A stretch of 64,000 bases of DNA from the IMG/VR virus record IMGVR_UViG_3300046167_000801. One strand, 5' to 3'. Made by a program: the position numbers and the translations under genes. The stretch is from a virus (Duplodnaviria > Caudoviricetes). The notes under the pieces are model-generated. The model did no database searches. It was not told the origin of the DNA and saw only the letters and a list, made by a program, of their open reading frames with translations. This document shows, in pieces, positions 2,196 through 60,505 of this stretch; the stretch's first letter is position 1, and each line of letters opens with the position of its first letter.

Positions 2196-5100
2196 ATGAA
2201 TATATTTGATCCACACATTACAGGATCCCTATCCGTTTCCGCATCTGCAGAAATACAAGGGGATTTAACAGTACAAGGAACTATCTATGGTACTGCACAG
2301 ATTGACGGAAGTGTTGATAATGCAATAAGTGCATCACACGCCGCCTCCTACTTACTCACATCAAGTTTTAATGATTATAAAAATACCGCAGCTACTACTG
2401 GAAGTAATATATTCATTGGGGATCAAACAATTAGTGGATCGTTGTTACCTCAAGGAACACTTACTCATGATTTGGGTAGCGACACTAAAAGATGGAATGA
2501 TATATATTTAGCGGGAAGTACTATCGATTTGGGTGGTACAAAAATAACTAAGAATAGTGATGGTGATGTACAACTTCACGATAGTGGTAATACTTTAAAA
2601 AGATTAATTGCATCTGAAATTGAGTTAGGTCACGGATCGAACAAGAAAGTTCTTAAAGTAAATAATGGTCGTTTAAAGTTAATGGCCACTAACGACAGTG
2701 ATGAAGAGTTAGCCCAATTATCGGGTTCGTTCACTGGTTCTTTTAGAGGAGATGGTAGTGGTTTAATTAATGTTCCCGCAAGTGGGGTTACGGGTCTAAG
2801 TTTAGATCGGATTGCAAGTACAACAGCAACCGCGTCGATATCCTCAGACAGTTTGATAACTAATGTTTCAATTATACCTAGTATCACAAATACAATTGAT
2901 TTAGGTGCACCCGACAAGGAGTGGAGAGATTTATATCTTTCATCAGGGTCATTATATATAAATGGACAACAAGTACTTTCAACTACAGGTACTGAATTAA
3001 GAGTCACTACAGATAGTGGTGAATCAATAAAAATATTAGAAACGGGTTCTGATACTATCACACTACAAACAGTTGATGGTGATATTACATTAAGTTCTTC
3101 AGGAACGGGTAATATAGAATTAGATGCACCTATACAAATAACGGCGGGTAATAAAATAATATCTTCAGACGGAAACTCAATTGTTTTTGGTAATGGATTG
3201 ATTATTACTGGTAGTATTGGATTAACAGGTACTGTCGATGGGGTTGATGTGGCATCACTAAAAACAGATGTAGACGCTATTTTAGATTCTTCTGAAGCCG
3301 ATAAAGATTCGTTTGCTGAAATCGTAGGATTAATCAATAGCGTTGATACTGCGAATGACCAAGCATTTGCGGCACATTATACCGCAAGTAATAATAGACT
3401 TAGTTCATTAGAAACAACTAGTGGTTCACATGATGGGAGATTAAGTTCATTAGAAACAACGAGTGGTTCACACTCATCTAAATTAAACTCTTTAGAATTA
3501 GCGTCAGGTTCTATAATTGAAAGGTTAGGGGAGATAGAGTTTATTACGGGATCACATGACGGTAGGTTAGATGGATTAGAAACATTTACGGGTAGTGTGG
3601 ATGGTACTATAAGGTCTGACTTTAATAGTTATACCTCATCCAACGACTCAACTAATACAAATCAAAATAGTAGATTAGGTAGTTTAGAAACCAAAAGTGG
3701 TTCTTTAAATACCGATATTAAATCAAAACTAAATACGGAAAATGTTGTTTCAGGTTCTGAGTTTGTTTTAAATTCAACCTCACCAATAACACAATATGTT
3801 GATGTTACCGTAACTGCAAGTGGTGGTGTATATTATATAGATGGTGTAGAACAACAAATTGTCTCATTAGCGAAAGGACTAGTTTATAGGTTTGATGTGT
3901 CAGACTCTTCAAATGCAGGACATCCATTTAGATTCTCAACGACAGATAACAATCAATACACAGATGGTGTAACTGTAAATGGTACTGAAGGTAGATCAGG
4001 GGCATACGTTCAAATTATTGTAAATCAAGACACACCACAAACACTATTATACTATTGTACCAATCATAATGGTATGGGTAATAAAGTTTTCGTCGGTGGA
4101 GCTGGTGACACAGACTCAATTACAGAAGGATCAACTAACCTTTACTATACGGATGCTAGAGTTAAATCCAAATTAAATACGGAAACTGTTATTAGTGGTT
4201 CTGAACAAGTTGATATAACAAATACTACAAATTATAATTTAGTTACCAATAGAATTGGTTCTTTAGAATCATTCACTGCGAGTATTGATGATACATATGC
4301 GAGTGATACTGATGTAACAACTCTTAGGAATGATTTAAATACCTATACATCATCTAATGATTCTACGAATACAAATCAAAATAGTAGATTAGGTAGTTTA
4401 GAAACCAAAAGTGGTTCACACGATGGTAGATTAGATAGTATAGAATCATTCACAAGTAGTATTGATGATACTTACGCAACTGATACTGATGTAACAACTC
4501 TTAGGAATGATTTAAATACCTATACATCATCCAACGATTCAACCAATACATCACAAAATAATAGATTAGGTTCATTAGAAACCAAAACAGGTAGTTTAGA
4601 TAGCGATATAACTGATCTAAGGGGTGATTTAAATACCTACACGTCTTCAAACGAAACAGATAAACAAAACTTAAGTGGTAGGGTAGATTCTTTAGAGACT
4701 AAAACTGGGAGTTTAACAACCGATATAAATACTTTAGATGGTAGGGTTGATTCCATAGAGTCATTTACCGCAAGTATTGATGATACTTATGCTACTGACA
4801 CAGATGTAACTAACCTAACCAACAGAGTTGGTAGTTTAGAAACCAAAAGTGGTTCATTAGAAACTACGAATACTACTCAGAATAATAGATTAGGGTCACT
4901 TGAAACAACTTCAGGTTCTCATGACGGAAGGTTAGATTCATTAGAAACCAAGACAGGTAGTTTAGATACCACCAATACCAATCAAGACGGTAGATTAGAT
5001 TCAATAGAATCATTCACTGCGAGTATTGATGATACATATGCGAGTGATACAGATGTTACTACATTAAGAAATGATTTAAATACTTATACCTCATCTAACA

Positions 5101-56746: not shown

Positions 56747-57016
56747 TTGAGAAATAAATTGTTCGACAACTTCGATACACCTTCCGAATTTTATAATTTT
56801 GATGATGAATTTAGACAAAGTTTAGACAACTCGTACGATATATTTACGGGTAGAAGGACTTATGTTGAAATCATTTGCAATTCTGAAAAACCTCACTTCT
56901 TTTTCTTTGAACCTACTGAGACACCTTCTAAAGAGGATATCGAGGATCTTATATACATATATGAAGACTATGAGGAATACGAAAGATGTGGAGAACTAAT
57001 GAATTTAATAAAATAG
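56747..57016 (+). CDS. Acidic protein with a UVR-like C-terminal motif
   Basis: YEDYEEYERCGEL. Confidence 0.55.
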   Translation: MRNKLFDNFDTPSEFYNFDDEFRQSLDNSYDIFTGRRTYVEIICNSEKPHFFFFEPTETPSKEDIEDLIYIYEDYEEYERCGELMNLIK

Positions 57017-57020
57017 TTAA

Positions 57021-57212
57021 TTGAAAGATAAGATAATAGATAAATTAGTTACTGGTATCCTAATCGTATTAGTTATTTTAATTGTTGGGGACTATATGAT
57101 CGCCTATAGCGAGAATAGACCAATAAACGAAAAAATAATTGATTTAATCCACATAACCATCGCAGGTTTAATTGGAATTATAGGTACTTATTATGGTATG
57201 AAAAACAAATAA
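57021..57212 (+). CDS. 2-TM small membrane protein (holin-like topology)
   Basis: Two TM segments, ending GLIGIIGTYYG. Confidence 0.55.
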   Translation: MKDKIIDKLVTGILIVLVILIVGDYMIAYSENRPINEKIIDLIHITIAGLIGIIGTYYGMKNK

Positions 57213-57213
57213 A

Positions 57214-57369
57214 ATGAGATCACAATTCCTACAAAAATTAATAGAAAAGTTTCCGAATGATTATCAGTTAGGTCAGGCAATTAGAAAGTATCACCGATTG
57301 AGGTCAGGGGGAAAAATAAAACCAGAATGTGAGAAGATTGTATTAAGATCAACCTTCGACGATAACTAA
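57214..57369 (+). CDS. Small protein (51 aa, FPNDYQLGQAIRK)
   Basis: Read by hand. Confidence 0.6.
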   Translation: MRSQFLQKLIEKFPNDYQLGQAIRKYHRLRSGGKIKPECEKIVLRSTFDDN

Positions 57370-57377
57370 GTAAAAAA

Positions 57378-57521
57378 ATGAGTCACGAACAACAAACTAA
57401 TGGAACTCCTCAACTACAAGGAGAAAGAAACTCTTTCAATCAGAAAGTAGGTTCTTATAGTATATTGGGTAGAACTAAGAAAGTTCTATGGTCTAATAGA
57501 CGTAGGTGGAGAAACATATAG
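57378..57521 (+). CDS. Small protein (47 aa)
   Basis: Read by hand: MSHEQQTNGTPQLQ...RRRWRNI. Confidence 0.55.
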   Translation: MSHEQQTNGTPQLQGERNSFNQKVGSYSILGRTKKVLWSNRRRWRNI

Positions 57522-57609
57522 AAATGTCAAATGTCTCCTTTACTAATAGAGGGACATGGTTAGTACTCTTGAGTACATAATATTAGGATTAAATACATTT
57601 AAATATAAT

Positions 57610-58401
57610 ATGGGAAATTGGTTTAAAAAGGCGGGAAAAACTATTAAAAAGTCTGCCGATAAGGCCGCAGATAAGGTTAAGGATACAACCAACACCGTTG
57701 CGAAAGAAACTACTAATGCGGCGAACACCGTTGCGAAAGAAACTACTAAGGTAGCTAACACAGTTGCCAAAACAACTACAAATATTTATACTGACTCTAA
57801 AAAGGCAGTGGTGAAAACAACTAACGTAGTTGCTAAAAACACTGAAGAGGCTGCGAAACAAGGATTGGATGTTGCATCTGATACTTGGAAGGAAGGAAGT
57901 TCACAAGTAATTGAGTTTTCAAAAGATGGGTTAGAGGCAATCGAGGACGCTGCGGAGGCGACAGTCGATTGGTTAGATGAGAATGCATGTTACATCGGAT
58001 TAAATATGGCATTAACAACAGGTTGTGTTGCGTACTTCACACCTAAACCGGCACCTGCAGATCCAGGTACTGTGACATCAACTACTATTAGTGCAACCAT
58101 GTTGGGTGCGATCGCGTCAGTTGGTCAGAAAGTTGCGATAATGGTGGTCTCCAAAGAGGTTGGTAAACTTTTGGCGGATGGTATATTTTTAATACCTGGT
58201 GTGAAAGGAAAATGTGATAAGGAATTATTGACAAGAGTTCTCACTAATGTGATTGCTAAGTCGAATCCTATATATACCACAGCCGCGTTATCAACACCAG
58301 CAGGGGTTGGTTTGTTTGTTGGGTCAGTAGTTTCACCGATAGTGGCAACACTAATTTGTGAGGGAGTGGTACCAAATGGGTTCTCTAAATTAGACGATTA
58401 A
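57610..58401 (+). CDS. Protein with N-terminal 11-mer amphipathic repeats and a hydrophobic C-terminal domain
   Basis: (T/A)NTVAK(E/T)TT repeats with 33-nt period. Gly/Ala-rich hydrophobic helices after residue ~130. Confidence 0.7.
   Translation: MGNWFKKAGKTIKKSADKAADKVKDTTNTVAKETTNAANTVAKETTKVANTVAKTTTNIYTDSKKAVVKTTNVVAKNTEEAAKQGLDVASDTWKEGSSQVIEFSKDGLEAIEDAAEATVDWLDENACYIGLNMALTTGCVAYFTPKPAPADPGTVTSTTISATMLGAIASVGQKVAIMVVSKEVGKLLADGIFLIPGVKGKCDKELLTRVLTNVIAKSNPIYTTAALSTPAGVGLFVGSVVSPIVATLICEGVVPNGFSKLDD
57691..57780 (+). repeat. 33-bp tandem repeat, 3 copies
   Basis: AACACCGTTGCGAAAGAAACTACTA is identical at 57691 and 57724, with a degenerate copy at 57757. Confidence 0.9.
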
Positions 58402-58430
58402 AAAAAAATATAAATATTTTTATTATTTTA

Positions 58431-58461
58431 TTGATTTAATAAAAAATGTTTTATATATTTG
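58431..58461 (+). promoter_or_regulatory. Bacteroidota-type promoter driving the non-coding region
   Basis: TTG-N20-TATATTTG. Confidence 0.8.
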
Positions 58462-58466
58462 TACCA

Positions 58467-58935
58467 ACAAAAGGGATAGGTTGAACAAAACGATACCGAT
58501 TGACCCCTAACGTTCTTTAAAATATTGAAAAGAGGCAGGATTAAGATTGATCATCAATATCCTGAGTGTATGGGAGAATAAATCTTTGTGAAAGGGGATT
58601 AATCCACACTGACAGTAGACACGTTCTACTATTTTTGCTGAGGTTCGCAAGACTGATGTAAAGATATCTTGACAAAGAAGAAGTGGTAGACATTACACAA
58701 GCTAAACAGCTTACTTTCAAACTCATTGTGAGACGGTCGAAAGATCAAACTCATCTTGTGACTGAATAACCCTTCTGTTCGGGGGTAAGGTAAACTATAA
58801 GGGGTTGTACCCGCATCGTAGGATTAACACTCCGAAAATGAATCAATGTAAAAATTGGTATAGTTGTATGAGTATAAAACACGACAGAATGATCTTCCTT
58901 GGATAGCATACCGAGGTATACATCCTCTTTTTTAT
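58467..58935 (+). ncRNA. Candidate large structured ncRNA (family unassigned)
   Basis: No + strand ORF between promoter and terminator. boxA-like CGTTCTTTAAAA at 58511, closing helix 58528-35/58924-31, and many hairpins including GNRA loops. Confidence 0.65.
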
Positions 58936-58938
58936 AAT

Positions 58939-58972
58939 AAACCCTTTTCCGGTAACGGTTAAGGGTTTTTTT
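58939..58972 (+). terminator. Intrinsic terminator
   Basis: AAACCCTT..CCG-GTAA-CGG..AAGGGTTT followed by a T-run. Confidence 0.85.
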
Positions 58973-59004
58973 ATGCAATAATATTAAAGAATTTCAATTA
59001 TAAT

Positions 59005-59035
59005 TTTGTATATCCTAAAAAATATACTATATTTG
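59005..59035 (+). promoter_or_regulatory. Bacteroidota-type promoter
   Basis: TTTG-N19-TATATTTG. Confidence 0.75.
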
Positions 59036-59049
59036 GTGAAATTAAAAGT

Positions 59050-59241
59050 ATGAAAATTTTTGCAGTAAAAAACGGTATAAGATATTTCAGAGAACGATTA
59101 GAGTCTACAGACAATAAAGACAGAAAGGTCTACTATAGAAACGAAATTTATAGGTTGGAAGAAAAACTGTATAATTTACAATTTAAAGAAGAAGAAAAAC
59201 ATTATGGTGAAATTATTCAGGAACGAGAAGGGTCAGATTAA
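59050..59241 (+). CDS. Hypothetical helical protein
   Basis: ORF directly after a promoter. Confidence 0.55.
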   Translation: MKIFAVKNGIRYFRERLESTDNKDRKVYYRNEIYRLEEKLYNLQFKEEEKHYGEIIQEREGSD

Positions 59242-59395
59242 ATTATTAGAAGGTCAGGTAGAACTTGTGGGTTCAGACGGTAAAAAGATACGACACCACC
59301 CAACTAAATTCTCAATATGTGGGTGCGGAAAAAGTAAAACAATATTATGTGATGGTTCACACAAACCAAAAGAAGATGAAAGTAAAGAAAATTGA
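59204..59395 (+). CDS. CDGSH-type iron-sulfur domain protein
   Basis: FSICGCGKSKTILCDGSH. Confidence 0.88.
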   Translation: MVKLFRNEKGQIKLLEGQVELVGSDGKKIRHHPTKFSICGCGKSKTILCDGSHKPKEDESKEN

Positions 59396-59657
59396 TACAC
59401 CATTAGAGGTTGTTTCCAAAGAAGTACAACGATGGATAGACAAAACAGAAGATGAGAACGCAAAGTTTCCTCTTCATGCGGTCTTAGAAATAATTAAAAC
59501 CTTATCTGTGGAAGAAGAAAAGTTTGCGGGTAAAATGTACGACTATGGTGCAAGTGGTCGATATGGATATACCACAGGTAGAAAGTTTTATAAATCTGAA
59601 TTTTTGGGTCATGGGAAAGAAGAAAACAACAAAATTGAAGAGTTGGGAGTTCGTTAA
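59376..59657 (+). CDS. Hypothetical protein
   Basis: Start moved to the internal ATG (MKVKKIDTP). Confidence 0.55.
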   Translation: MKVKKIDTPLEVVSKEVQRWIDKTEDENAKFPLHAVLEIIKTLSVEEEKFAGKMYDYGASGRYGYTTGRKFYKSEFLGHGKEENNKIEELGVR

Positions 59658-59796
59658 AGATAAAAAACACTCTTTAACGACATTAAGTGAATGGGATGAT
59701 CCCTCACAATTTTATTACCAATTTGATGGATATATGTACTATCCCGCAGTTTCTAAACATGATCTGGATATGTTGTATAGGTCCCCAAACACATGA
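59611..59796 (+). CDS. Hypothetical protein
   Basis: Start moved to the internal ATG (MGKKKTT). Confidence 0.5.
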   Translation: MGKKKTTKLKSWEFVKDKKHSLTTLSEWDDPSQFYYQFDGYMYYPAVSKHDLDMLYRSPNT

Positions 59797-60071
59797 CTTT
59801 ACATCATCAATTATTTTACTTAAGTTAAGGTAAGAATCTTAAATTGTATAAATTATGAATCACTGGTTAAATGAGGGGAGACAAATCCTTGATGAAAAAC
59901 AAATAGATCAATATAATAAAATAGAGAGAAGACCTACATTGGGTTGTTTGATCGTAGTTGGAGGGACGATCATGTTTTGGTCATTTGTTTATTGGGTTTA
60001 TCTATTATTCACCACATAATTTGATTTATTATAAAATTTTATTTATATTTTAATAACAACACCAAAGAGAG

Positions 60072-60395
60072 ATGAGAAAATGGTATAGAAATTTGGATTC
60101 CGTAGGTTTATTATTAACAATAATGTTATTGTTTTTCATTATAGTGTATTCGGGAATACAATTTAATCAGGGAGAACCTGAGATAGTTGTAAAAGAACGT
60201 CAGATCTTTAAAACCGACACAATTTATATAGAGCAACTAATAAACTTAGATAGGTTAGATAGTATAGAAGAGATATTATACTACGAAGTCATCGAGGACC
60301 AACTTTATCTATATACAAAGAAAGACTCTATTAGGGATGAGATTGAAAGATGGAACTACATAAGAAGTTTAGATCCTGAAGGGTGGGAACAATGA
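60072..60395 (+). CDS. Single-TM protein
   Basis: N-terminal TM segment. Confidence 0.6.
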   Translation: MRKWYRNLDSVGLLLTIMLLFFIIVYSGIQFNQGEPEIVVKERQIFKTDTIYIEQLINLDRLDSIEEILYYEVIEDQLYLYTKKDSIRDEIERWNYIRSLDPEGWEQ

Positions 60396-60505
60396 GTGAA
60401 AAGGTACCTTACGAACCAAAATGTAAGAAATGTGGTAAGATATTACCATTGGGTTTAGGTTTAACAGTAGTTTGTATAGAATGTATAATAAAAAGACCAA
60501 AATAA
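60392..60505 (+). CDS. CxxC...CxxC microprotein (37 aa)
   Basis: Read by hand: CKKCG...CIEC. ATGA overlap. Confidence 0.55.
   Translation: MSEKVPYEPKCKKCGKILPLGLGLTVVCIECIIKRPK

Follow-up and report, generated by a model that had tools for sequence, protein, structure and literature searches.

In previous work the position of the manA RNA motif (Rfam RF01745) in 5' untranslated regions led to its proposal as a riboswitch candidate (Weinberg et al. 2010, PMC2864571), and it has been an orphan candidate since 2010. A 2026 preprint reported that manA RNAs form pentamer-based octamers, decamers and a 60-subunit RNA-only cage in vitro, held by the kissing loops L5-L7', L8-L9' and L3-L8' and by a GNRA-receptor contact (Ren et al. 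2026, preprint 10.64898/2026.07.01.735769), and these cages came without a link to biology. Here we analysed a 64-kb stretch of DNA from an uncultivated marine phage (IMG/VR record IMGVR_UViG_3300046167_000801; "the window" hereafter), in which positions 58431-58979 on the + strand are a self-contained gene for a stable structured RNA, headed by a BoxA element such as precedes ribosomal RNA. The RNA is probably a large, uncatalogued, double-core variant of the manA family in Bacteroidota phages. It adds to that family a much larger natural form with two cores per chain, extra closing helices and a new phage-host group, which had been missed by the Rfam thresholds.

The RNAs ROOL (RF03087) and GOLLD (RF01998) are also large, highly structured, often phage-borne and tRNA-adjacent, and they assemble from RNA alone into multimers or cages (Kretsch et al. 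2025, PMC12286853). The present RNA differs from both in being smaller, in its manA-type architecture and in matching neither of them in sequence or structure. A first-pass annotation, made by a model from the letters alone, had proposed a stable, large, stand-alone phage non-coding RNA that was either a GOLLD/ROOL relative or a new class. The first part was confirmed, by covariation and by metatranscriptome depth about 100-fold above the flanks, whereas the interpretation was only partly supported: no GOLLD or ROOL match was found at E <= 10 in 58300-59100 or at gathering score in the window, and the 3' half proved to be a sub-threshold manA relative, so that the class is not wholly new either. 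If the RNA assembles as manA RNAs are reported to, ROOL and GOLLD would still be an apt functional analogy, as phage-borne, tRNA-linked, cage-forming RNAs set beside manA RNAs with reported RNA-only cages of their own.

Fold of the RNA and its relation to manA

One scan of metagenome contigs with a conserved-core pattern gave 89 loci, 32 of which align along the entire RNA, and de-duplication left 23 distinct full-length homologs in two deep clades. Clade 1 (n = 15, window included) has its own promoter and terminator; clade 2 (n = 8) has a very different sequence and lacks the terminator. The single-sequence folding energy is unremarkable (z = -1.75 for the + and -2.69 for the - strand), and therefore the evidence for structure must come from the comparison of homologs. 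Between the window and an 87% identical relative, 107 pairs were predicted, 12 with double compensatory changes and 0 broken; RNAalifold on 24 sequences gave 69 pairs, 35 of them compensatory; and the two clades folded independently into an identical architecture. In a curated model of the 23 homologs, with helix registers set per clade by hand and pairs counted by script, 18 helices with 90 pairs were canonical in 1,988 of 2,037 cells (97.6%) and held 49 compensatory positions, against 40-46% canonical cells and 1-4 compensatory positions in controls with the 3' partner shifted by 1-3 columns, a contrast somewhat inflated by the way in which the helices were defined. The homolog comparison that the first-pass annotation had suggested thus leaves little doubt that the structure is real. 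The + strand is fixed by invariant G-U pairs, which would be A-C on the other strand, and by the promoter and terminator.

The folded body of about 405 nt has the following elements:

58528-35 AAAAGAGG / 58924-31 CCTCTTTT (+): P1, outer closing helix, 96% canonical, 2-3 compensatory positions
58536-64 (+): P2/P2b hairpin, 6 of 8 pair positions compensatory, palindromic loop UGAUCA (58548-53) invariant
58566-70/58917-21 (+): P3, inner closing helix, GUGUA with UAYAC, 100% canonical (n = 23), mostly invariant with one compensatory change
58572-58685 (+): core A, the 5' domain, supported by covariation, not in Rfam
58573-75/58603-05 (+): P4a of core A, GGA/UCC
58576-81 (+): GAAUAA of core A, invariant
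58582-99 (+): P4 hairpin of core A, followed by UAA
58607-10/58682-85 (+): P5a of core A, closing the three-hairpin junction P5/P6/P7
58615-29 (+): P5 hairpin of core A
58630-66 (+): P6 hairpin, 9 bp, 7 covarying positions
58667-78 (+): P7 hairpin of core A, GACA loop
58699-58712 (+): P8 hairpin, variable, 3-5 bp in clade 1 and 7-11 bp in clade 2
58721-26/58868-73 (+): P16, long-range helix ACUCAU/AUGAGU enclosing P9 and core B, four inner pairs in 23/23
58728-54 (+): P9/P9b hairpin, GUGAG...CUCAU around GGUC-GAAA-GAUC, 4 of 5 positions compensatory
58755-58916 (+): core B, manA-like, RF01745 match at 58742-58926, supported by covariation
58761-63/58789-91 (+): P10, ACU/GGU, pairs in 23/23
58764-69 (+): GAAUAA of core B, invariant
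58770-85 (+): P10b hairpin (CCCT/GGGG), followed by UAA, always paired and never varying, hence no covariation
58793-99/58859-65 (+): P11, closing the junction P12/P13/P14, 4 compensatory positions
58801-12 (+): P12 of core B, loop GUUGU
58814-40 (+): P13, loop UUAAC, 2 compensatory positions in P13/P13b
58843-58 (+): P14, 5 compensatory positions
58897-916 (+): P15 (CCTTGG/CCGAGG), supported by covariation

The outermost of the helices drawn by the first-pass annotation, 58528-35/58924-31, is real and carries compensatory changes, and its stems CAGGA/TCCTG, GTAGA/TCTAC, GTGAG/CTCAT and CCTTGG/CCGAGG are likewise backed by covariation. Three others held in part: ACCCTT/GGGGGT always pairs as CCCT/GGGG, an invariant stem; TC-GCAA-GA is the tip of the 9-bp covarying helix but specific to clade 1; and AAGCT/AGCTT is weakly kept in clade 1 and gives way to the longer P8 hairpin in clade 2. 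The long-range P16 changes from U-A to G-C in clade 2 and from C-G to U-A in one locus (L149). Two alternative pairings were rejected, namely a long-range one of the P2b arm with GAUC 58743-46, where two homologs (L098 and L149) back the local hairpin, and a local GUGU/ACAC predicted from clade 1 alone, which was replaced by the long-range P3 because clade 2 is unable to form the local version.

Blocks kept in at least 22 of the 23 homologs are GTTCTT, TGATCA, TGAGTGT, GAATAA, GACA (twice), CATT, GTGACTGAATAACCC, GGGGGTAA, GTTGT, GTATG and TTTT; they are mostly loops and junctions, and the stems vary, a pattern that would be expected of tertiary or quaternary contacts. GAAUAA is invariant twice and each time in the same setting (3-bp helix, GAAUAA, hairpin, UAA, helix return), and may be a recurring tertiary motif.

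The 3' half, core B, is a divergent manA core and a clear relative of that family. Permissive cmscan of 58300-59100 aligned RF01745 over its full model length to 58742-58926 (+) with 47.3 bits (E 6.4e-11), below the gathering score of 55.2, and Rfam 15 at curated thresholds gave no match anywhere in the window. Scores against RF01745 are 45-48 bits in clade 1, 27-29 in clade 2 and 124-133 in canonical manA loci. The search proposed by the first-pass annotation, which had itself recognised no hallmarks of tmRNA, RNase P, group I/II introns or tRNA, returned at E <= 10 no GOLLD, ROOL, RNase P, tmRNA, 6S or intron, and apart from manA only chance-level matches; ARAGORN found 0 tRNA or tmRNA genes in the window. 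The 5' half (58528-58740) matched no Rfam family.

Core B shares with manA RNAs the signature module of UGACUGAAUAA, a hairpin and GGGUAAGGU inside an AC/GU helix (58758-58791 here), the closing helix (P11 here) around a three-hairpin junction, which aligns to the junction of the Rfam model, and a terminal hairpin with a UA-rich loop. The likeness extends to the first hairpin, whose loop contains GATC in 18 of 41 canonical loci and TGATCA in 10 of 41 and is UGAUCA in P2, and to P3, the counterpart of the manA helix labelled 'pseudoknot?' that joins the strand after this hairpin to the 3' end; P3 is GUGUA/UAYAC here and GGGAG/CUCCC in canonical loci, and the Rfam model mis-aligned both the first hairpin and P3. 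Both kinds of RNA live in marine phages and often have their own promoter or lie next to a tRNA. In contrast to the canonical RNA of about 190 nt, however, the present body has about 405 nt, an extra outer helix (P1) and, from the closing helix to the core, an insertion of about 190 nt, which holds a probable second manA-like core, P8 and P9. Moreover, the long-range P16 stands in place of the canonical penultimate local hairpin, P14 lacks the ACCA loop partner of GUGGUG, the RNA carries a BoxA leader, and it occurs in Bacteroidota phages rather than in cyanophages or Photobacterium.

Core A repeats the GAAUAA...UAA module and the closed three-hairpin junction in an identical structural context. 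A covariance model of core A, which had a good automatic structure of 25 pairs, found core B as its best non-self match in the window (58754-58854, 8.3 bits, E 0.038) and manA cores as its best matches elsewhere, in L166 (18.6 bits, E 0.0086) and L038 (13.9 bits); on the manA core of L155 (14.5 bits, E 0.087) the whole module-plus-junction topology was aligned. These scores are marginal one by one and consistently placed on manA cores, and we therefore consider it probable that cores A and B are a diverged internal duplication, with the 5' domain as a second manA-like core.

The rrn-like leader and the transcript

Around the folded body, the gene has these parts, followed by the promoter of its downstream neighbour:

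58431-36 and 58454-61 (+): Bacteroidota-type promoter, -33 TTG(ATT) and -7 box TATATTTG, TATATT(TG), identical or near-identical in clade-1 homologs
58472-58508 (+): leader hairpin in a boxB-like position, weak in the window copy
58512-22 (+): BoxA GTTCTTTAAAA, then ATATTG, a perfect match to GYTCTTTAANA
58939-58979 (+): intrinsic terminator with a two-part GC-rich stem, GUAA loop and U run, which folds and whose stem covaries in clade 1
59005-08 and 59028-35 (+): the next gene's own promoter, TTTG and TATATTTG, with ATG at 59050

Several of these parts had been proposed in the first-pass annotation. Its promoter (58431-58461) has its boxes in place and conserved in clade 1, its BoxA-like element became a perfect consensus match, and its terminator (58939-58972) folds and covaries, even though a simple terminator scan had missed this bipartite element. 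Its 5' hairpin (58473-58506) stood only in so far as most homologs have a short hairpin of other sequence at the same site; the window copy (-6.8 kcal/mol, z = 0.08) is no better than shuffled sequence. Judged from the promoter, the primary start would lie at about 58466-68. The terminator sequence varies freely among homologs and is absent from clade 2.

The consensus GYTCTTTAANA was derived for gamma-proteobacteria (PMC5725501), and GTTCTTTAAAA is its sole perfect match in the 64-kb window. By chance, one such match would turn up in 64 kb about half the time, and the weight of the element therefore lies in its position and conservation: it stands 5 nt before P1, and at least 22 of the 23 homologs, in both clades, keep its GTTCTT whatever is upstream, a promoter, a gene end or a tRNA.

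Flavobacteriaceae rrn leaders have the same layout, as the earlier idea of an rrn-like leader required: a TAnnTTTG promoter, the box that also heads the RNA gene, then a hairpin, then (A/G)GTTC(N)TT(G/C)A. A GTTC-type box follows the promoter in 7 of 8 sampled Flavobacteriaceae genomes with leaders of at least 250 nt, as GTTC(N)TT(G/C)A in five and in looser forms in two; examples are AGTTCTTTGA, AGTTCATTGA, AGTTCCTTGA and AGTTCTTCAA. The distance from the box to TAnnTTTG is 46-70 nt in three measured rrn leaders and 58 nt in the window. Further, the Flavobacteriaceae 16S-23S spacer GTTCTTTGACATATTGAAA and the phage leader GTTCTTTAAAATATTGAAA are identical at 17 of 19 positions, over GTTCTTT.A.ATATTGAAA. 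Because of this shared layout and the spacer identity, we read the head of the gene as a copy of the host group's rrn leader. The host itself is probably a member of the Flavobacteriaceae; the clues to it are a contig from a Flavobacteriaceae metagenome-assembled genome (MAG), the promoter type and the BoxA similarity only.

Since the leader is built like those of the host family's rrn operons, it is a reasonable inference that the gene uses the Nus antitermination machinery. CRISPR arrays, according to Stringer et al. in 2020, are reportedly BoxA-protected non-coding transcripts as well. In the suhB leader, too, a BoxA heads untranslated RNA, presumably against Rho-dependent termination (PMC5725501), whereas here it heads a phage structured-RNA gene in a Bacteroidota context. 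In rrn operon leaders BoxA stands just 5' of a long-range helix that awaits a distant 3' partner (PMC5725501, PMC10250234, PMC4807359), as it does here, with the differences that the product is a 0.4-kb phage RNA rather than rRNA and that no boxC was identified in it.

Among 41 distinct canonical manA loci (L032-L055, L077-L165), 16 are preceded within 110 nt by a TTGACA/TATAAT-like promoter of their own, 8 directly follow a tRNA and 3 have a BoxA-like box, for instance GGTTCTTTAACAA in L134. The manA RNAs with BoxA-like boxes in a non-cyanobacterial context include L134 and L166; cyanophage copies have plain promoters or come after tRNAs. This distribution suggests that manA RNAs generally may be stand-alone RNA genes rather than 5' untranslated elements.

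Among sequencing runs, the stretch occurs in 14 of marine or seawater DNA and in six metatranscriptomes, and four RNA runs were mapped on 57000-60500, where gaps in the flanks are no proof of absence. Three of them, X15, X16 and X18, which come from different studies, gave a discrete contig:

58498-58916: RNA contig in X15, depth 1,127
58498-58926: RNA contig in X18, depth 1,083
58498-58942: RNA contig in X16, depth 54
Flanking genes: depth 0-12 in all runs, except 57351-57584 in X15 (34-39)

The metatranscriptome coverage, a check suggested by the first-pass annotation, thus sets contigs of depth 54-1,127 in three runs against 0-12 in the flanks. The depth of the RNA is about 100-fold above that of the flanking genes and collapses immediately beyond it, from about 1,100 to 0; since DNA carry-over is unable to give a 100-fold step between adjacent kilobases, the RNA is made and accumulates. 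Such a discrete environmental species, far above the neighbouring mRNAs, favours a stand-alone product over a leader. In the fourth run (X17, an oligo-dT library) a contig of depth 12.6 runs through the terminator to 59007. The downstream genes have their own promoter at 59005-59035 and are for this reason independent of read-through from the RNA gene.

The accumulating species is about 435 nt long. The upstream contigs of low depth end at 58527, 30 nt (k-1) past 58498, with a jump in depth from 12-47 to about 1,100, and the shared start gives a hint of a dominant 5' end at 58498, processed inside the 3' arm of the leader hairpin with BoxA retained. In X18 (depth 47) adaptor sequence adjoins 58480 on the 5' side, and in X15 (depth 1,127) it adjoins 58916 on the 3' side, so many inserts end there; the two positions may be further processing or reverse-transcription stop sites.

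Mode of action and rival explanations

We favour, with a probability of about 0.6, a stand-alone stable RNA that is transcribed with the aid of BoxA and Nus factors and is likely a self-assembling particle, not a riboswitch. Transcription would start at the Bacteroidota-type promoter, and the nascent leader hairpin and BoxA would recruit NusB/NusE and partners, which would make the polymerase Rho-resistant on the untranslated RNA. The BoxA complex would also keep the 5' strand of P1 close to the exit channel for the roughly 400 nt that pass before its partner is transcribed; both benefits are carried over from the rrn antitermination complex (PMC4807359, PMC10250234), and an rrn-leader copy with a perfect BoxA would explain both the escape from Rho and the formation of a helix of 400-nt range. 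Transcription would stop at the intrinsic terminator. A species from about 58498 to about 58916-58942, roughly 420-445 nt, accumulates, in which P1, P3 and the UGAUCA-loop hairpin embrace two manA-type cores in series, each made of a 3-bp helix, a GAAUAA/UAA internal loop with its hairpin, and a three-hairpin junction. The data show the fold, the family relationship, the abundance and the anatomy of the gene; the part of BoxA and Nus factors, the processing and the oligomerisation are proposed. We predict that this RNA is made in bulk during infection and acts as a self-assembling particle or scaffold rather than as a switch in cis.

Self-assembly appears the likeliest mode of action because canonical manA is reported to assemble through loop-loop contacts and because the loops here are invariant on stems that covary. 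This combination, the two GNRA-type GACA elements and the palindromic loop would all suit such contacts. That the RNA assembles in the manner of manA RNAs is a tentative proposal, to which we give somewhat less than even odds. A bolder version, which we think rather unlikely, sees in the RNA a double protomer, with two units of the manA cage fold in covalent linkage. Five or more chains would close an RNA-only particle, produced in bulk in Flavobacteria through the mimicked rrn leader; the particle would be the equivalent of the two stacked pentamer rings of the canonical decamer, or larger. If this were true, it would be the first natural RNA cage to combine evidence of in-situ expression with a defined route of biogenesis. 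The locus allows concrete experiments on the part of cage-forming RNAs in infection.

Several points weigh against this interpretation. The L5-L7' complementarity (UGGU/ACCA) of canonical manA is not kept, and the better partner of GUUGU is the P13 loop UUAAC, not the loop of P14; for lack of the canonical complementarity, assembly is only inferred. The precedent for assembly is an in-vitro preprint on single-core manA RNAs. The double-core scores are individually marginal, and a core B model, which had a poor automatic structure, missed core A (3.0 bits, E 2.4). The same 23 sequences served both to define the curated helices and to count their pairs. Contigs give neither the strand nor the true ends, and the shared 58498 start is an assembly-graph branch point and hence a hint only. 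Finally, the clade-2 RNA lies 25-40 nt before an open reading frame (ORF) with no terminator after P1, and it was an arrangement of this kind that led to the cataloguing of manA as a cis-regulator.

This last point belongs to the best surviving rival, a cis-acting riboswitch or leader. In response to a metabolite, its folded domain would govern the downstream small genes, through read-through of the terminator 58939-72 or, in clade 2, through translation. Besides the original proposal of manA as a candidate (PMC2864571), a P1-type closing helix adjoining a terminator is typical of transcriptional riboswitches. We nevertheless regard it as improbable. The terminator lies 7 nt beyond P1 without overlap, no antiterminator pairing is conserved, and the terminator is free to change in sequence and is missing in clade 2; the next gene has its own promoter, and RNA depth drops to zero right behind the RNA. 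The genes downstream differ between the clades and share no function, known or otherwise, some family members and canonical manA RNAs directly follow tRNAs, and a BoxA leader makes little sense ahead of a terminator-based switch.

Quite improbable is a decoy, in which an abundant RNA with a 5' BoxA would titrate NusB/S10, or another host RNA-binding protein held by the folded body, and would in this way lower the host's rRNA synthesis or divert the transcription machinery. With a start at about 58498 the abundant species retains BoxA (58512-22), BoxA is conserved in both clades, and expression is very high; but a BoxA decoy needs no covarying double-core fold of 400 nt, and cyanophage manA RNAs lack BoxA, which therefore seems to aid transcription in particular hosts rather than to be the payload.

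Marginally less credible still is a catalytic or processing RNA (self-cleaving, or a tRNA-related ribozyme), or the RNA subunit of a phage ribonucleoprotein, in place of an RNA-only assembly. The discrete 5' end at 58498 in three runs, the tRNA clusters in which clade 2 and many manA RNAs lie and the invariant junction nucleotides could be read in this way, yet the RNA matches no known ribozyme, RNase P, intron or tmRNA model, the 58498 end falls in the variable leader outside the conserved core, and no conserved partner-protein gene is adjacent. Small proteins with an incidental structure can be set aside: 58402-59049 has no sense ORF of 60 amino acids (aa) or more, as the first-pass annotation had noted, and although the window copy has antisense ORFs of 61 and 75 aa, the five small ORFs tested on both strands are interrupted by 1-7 stops or frameshifts in all homologs except near-identical ones, so that none survives, and the substitutions show no third-position excess and fall instead in compensating pairs.

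Genomic setting and distribution

The RNA gene occupies the interval 58402-59049 between a gene for a 281-aa protein (57556-58401) and a run of small genes from 59050. For the 281-aa protein the only matches, to tape-measure PHROGs and the ATP synthase B chain, are weak and of coiled-coil type; its C-terminal two thirds are 80-92% conserved over many marine phage contigs. Just 3' of the RNA gene, a 63-aa ORF at 59204-59395, which overlaps the end of another 63-aa ORF, has a CDGSH iron-sulfur zinc-finger domain (PF09360, E 8e-9). Pfam and PHROGs gave no function for the ORFs 3' of the RNA in either clade.

INPHARED phage records held no DNA match to the RNA or to the surrounding 14 kb and no protein match for a 536-aa neighbour, and short exact patterns from the 5' half met mostly chance matches, one of which (L076) is DNA polymerase coding sequence. 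Of 31 IMG/VR loci with the upstream 281-aa gene, only two near-identical contigs, 87% identical to the window, have the RNA, and Rfam gave nothing in the remaining loci. Both closer and more distant phage relatives have an ORF of 201-211 aa where the window has the RNA, and for this reason the RNA gene is best described, from its distribution, as a movable accessory cassette. In L003-L012 this ORF lies directly 3' of the 281-aa gene (about 3830-4480 in locus coordinates); in L098 the RNA cassette is about 9 kb away from the 281-aa gene. The Flavobacteriaceae MAG contig (L171, 248 kb) carries the RNA and is collinear with the window over 51.4-61.7 kb at 73-91% identity; it is a prophage or else a large phage genome that was binned together with its host.

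Clade-2 loci have the order Hc1 histone-like gene (59 aa, PF07432) or tRNA-Thr, RNA, ORF of 101-125 aa, tRNA-Ala(UGC) and tRNA-Gly(GCC). This neighbourhood is fixed in L091:5890-5964, L157:4237-4390, L148:3952-4105, L142:5577-5729 and the other clade-2 loci, and in L091 the BoxA-like box begins right at the 3' end of tRNA-Thr.

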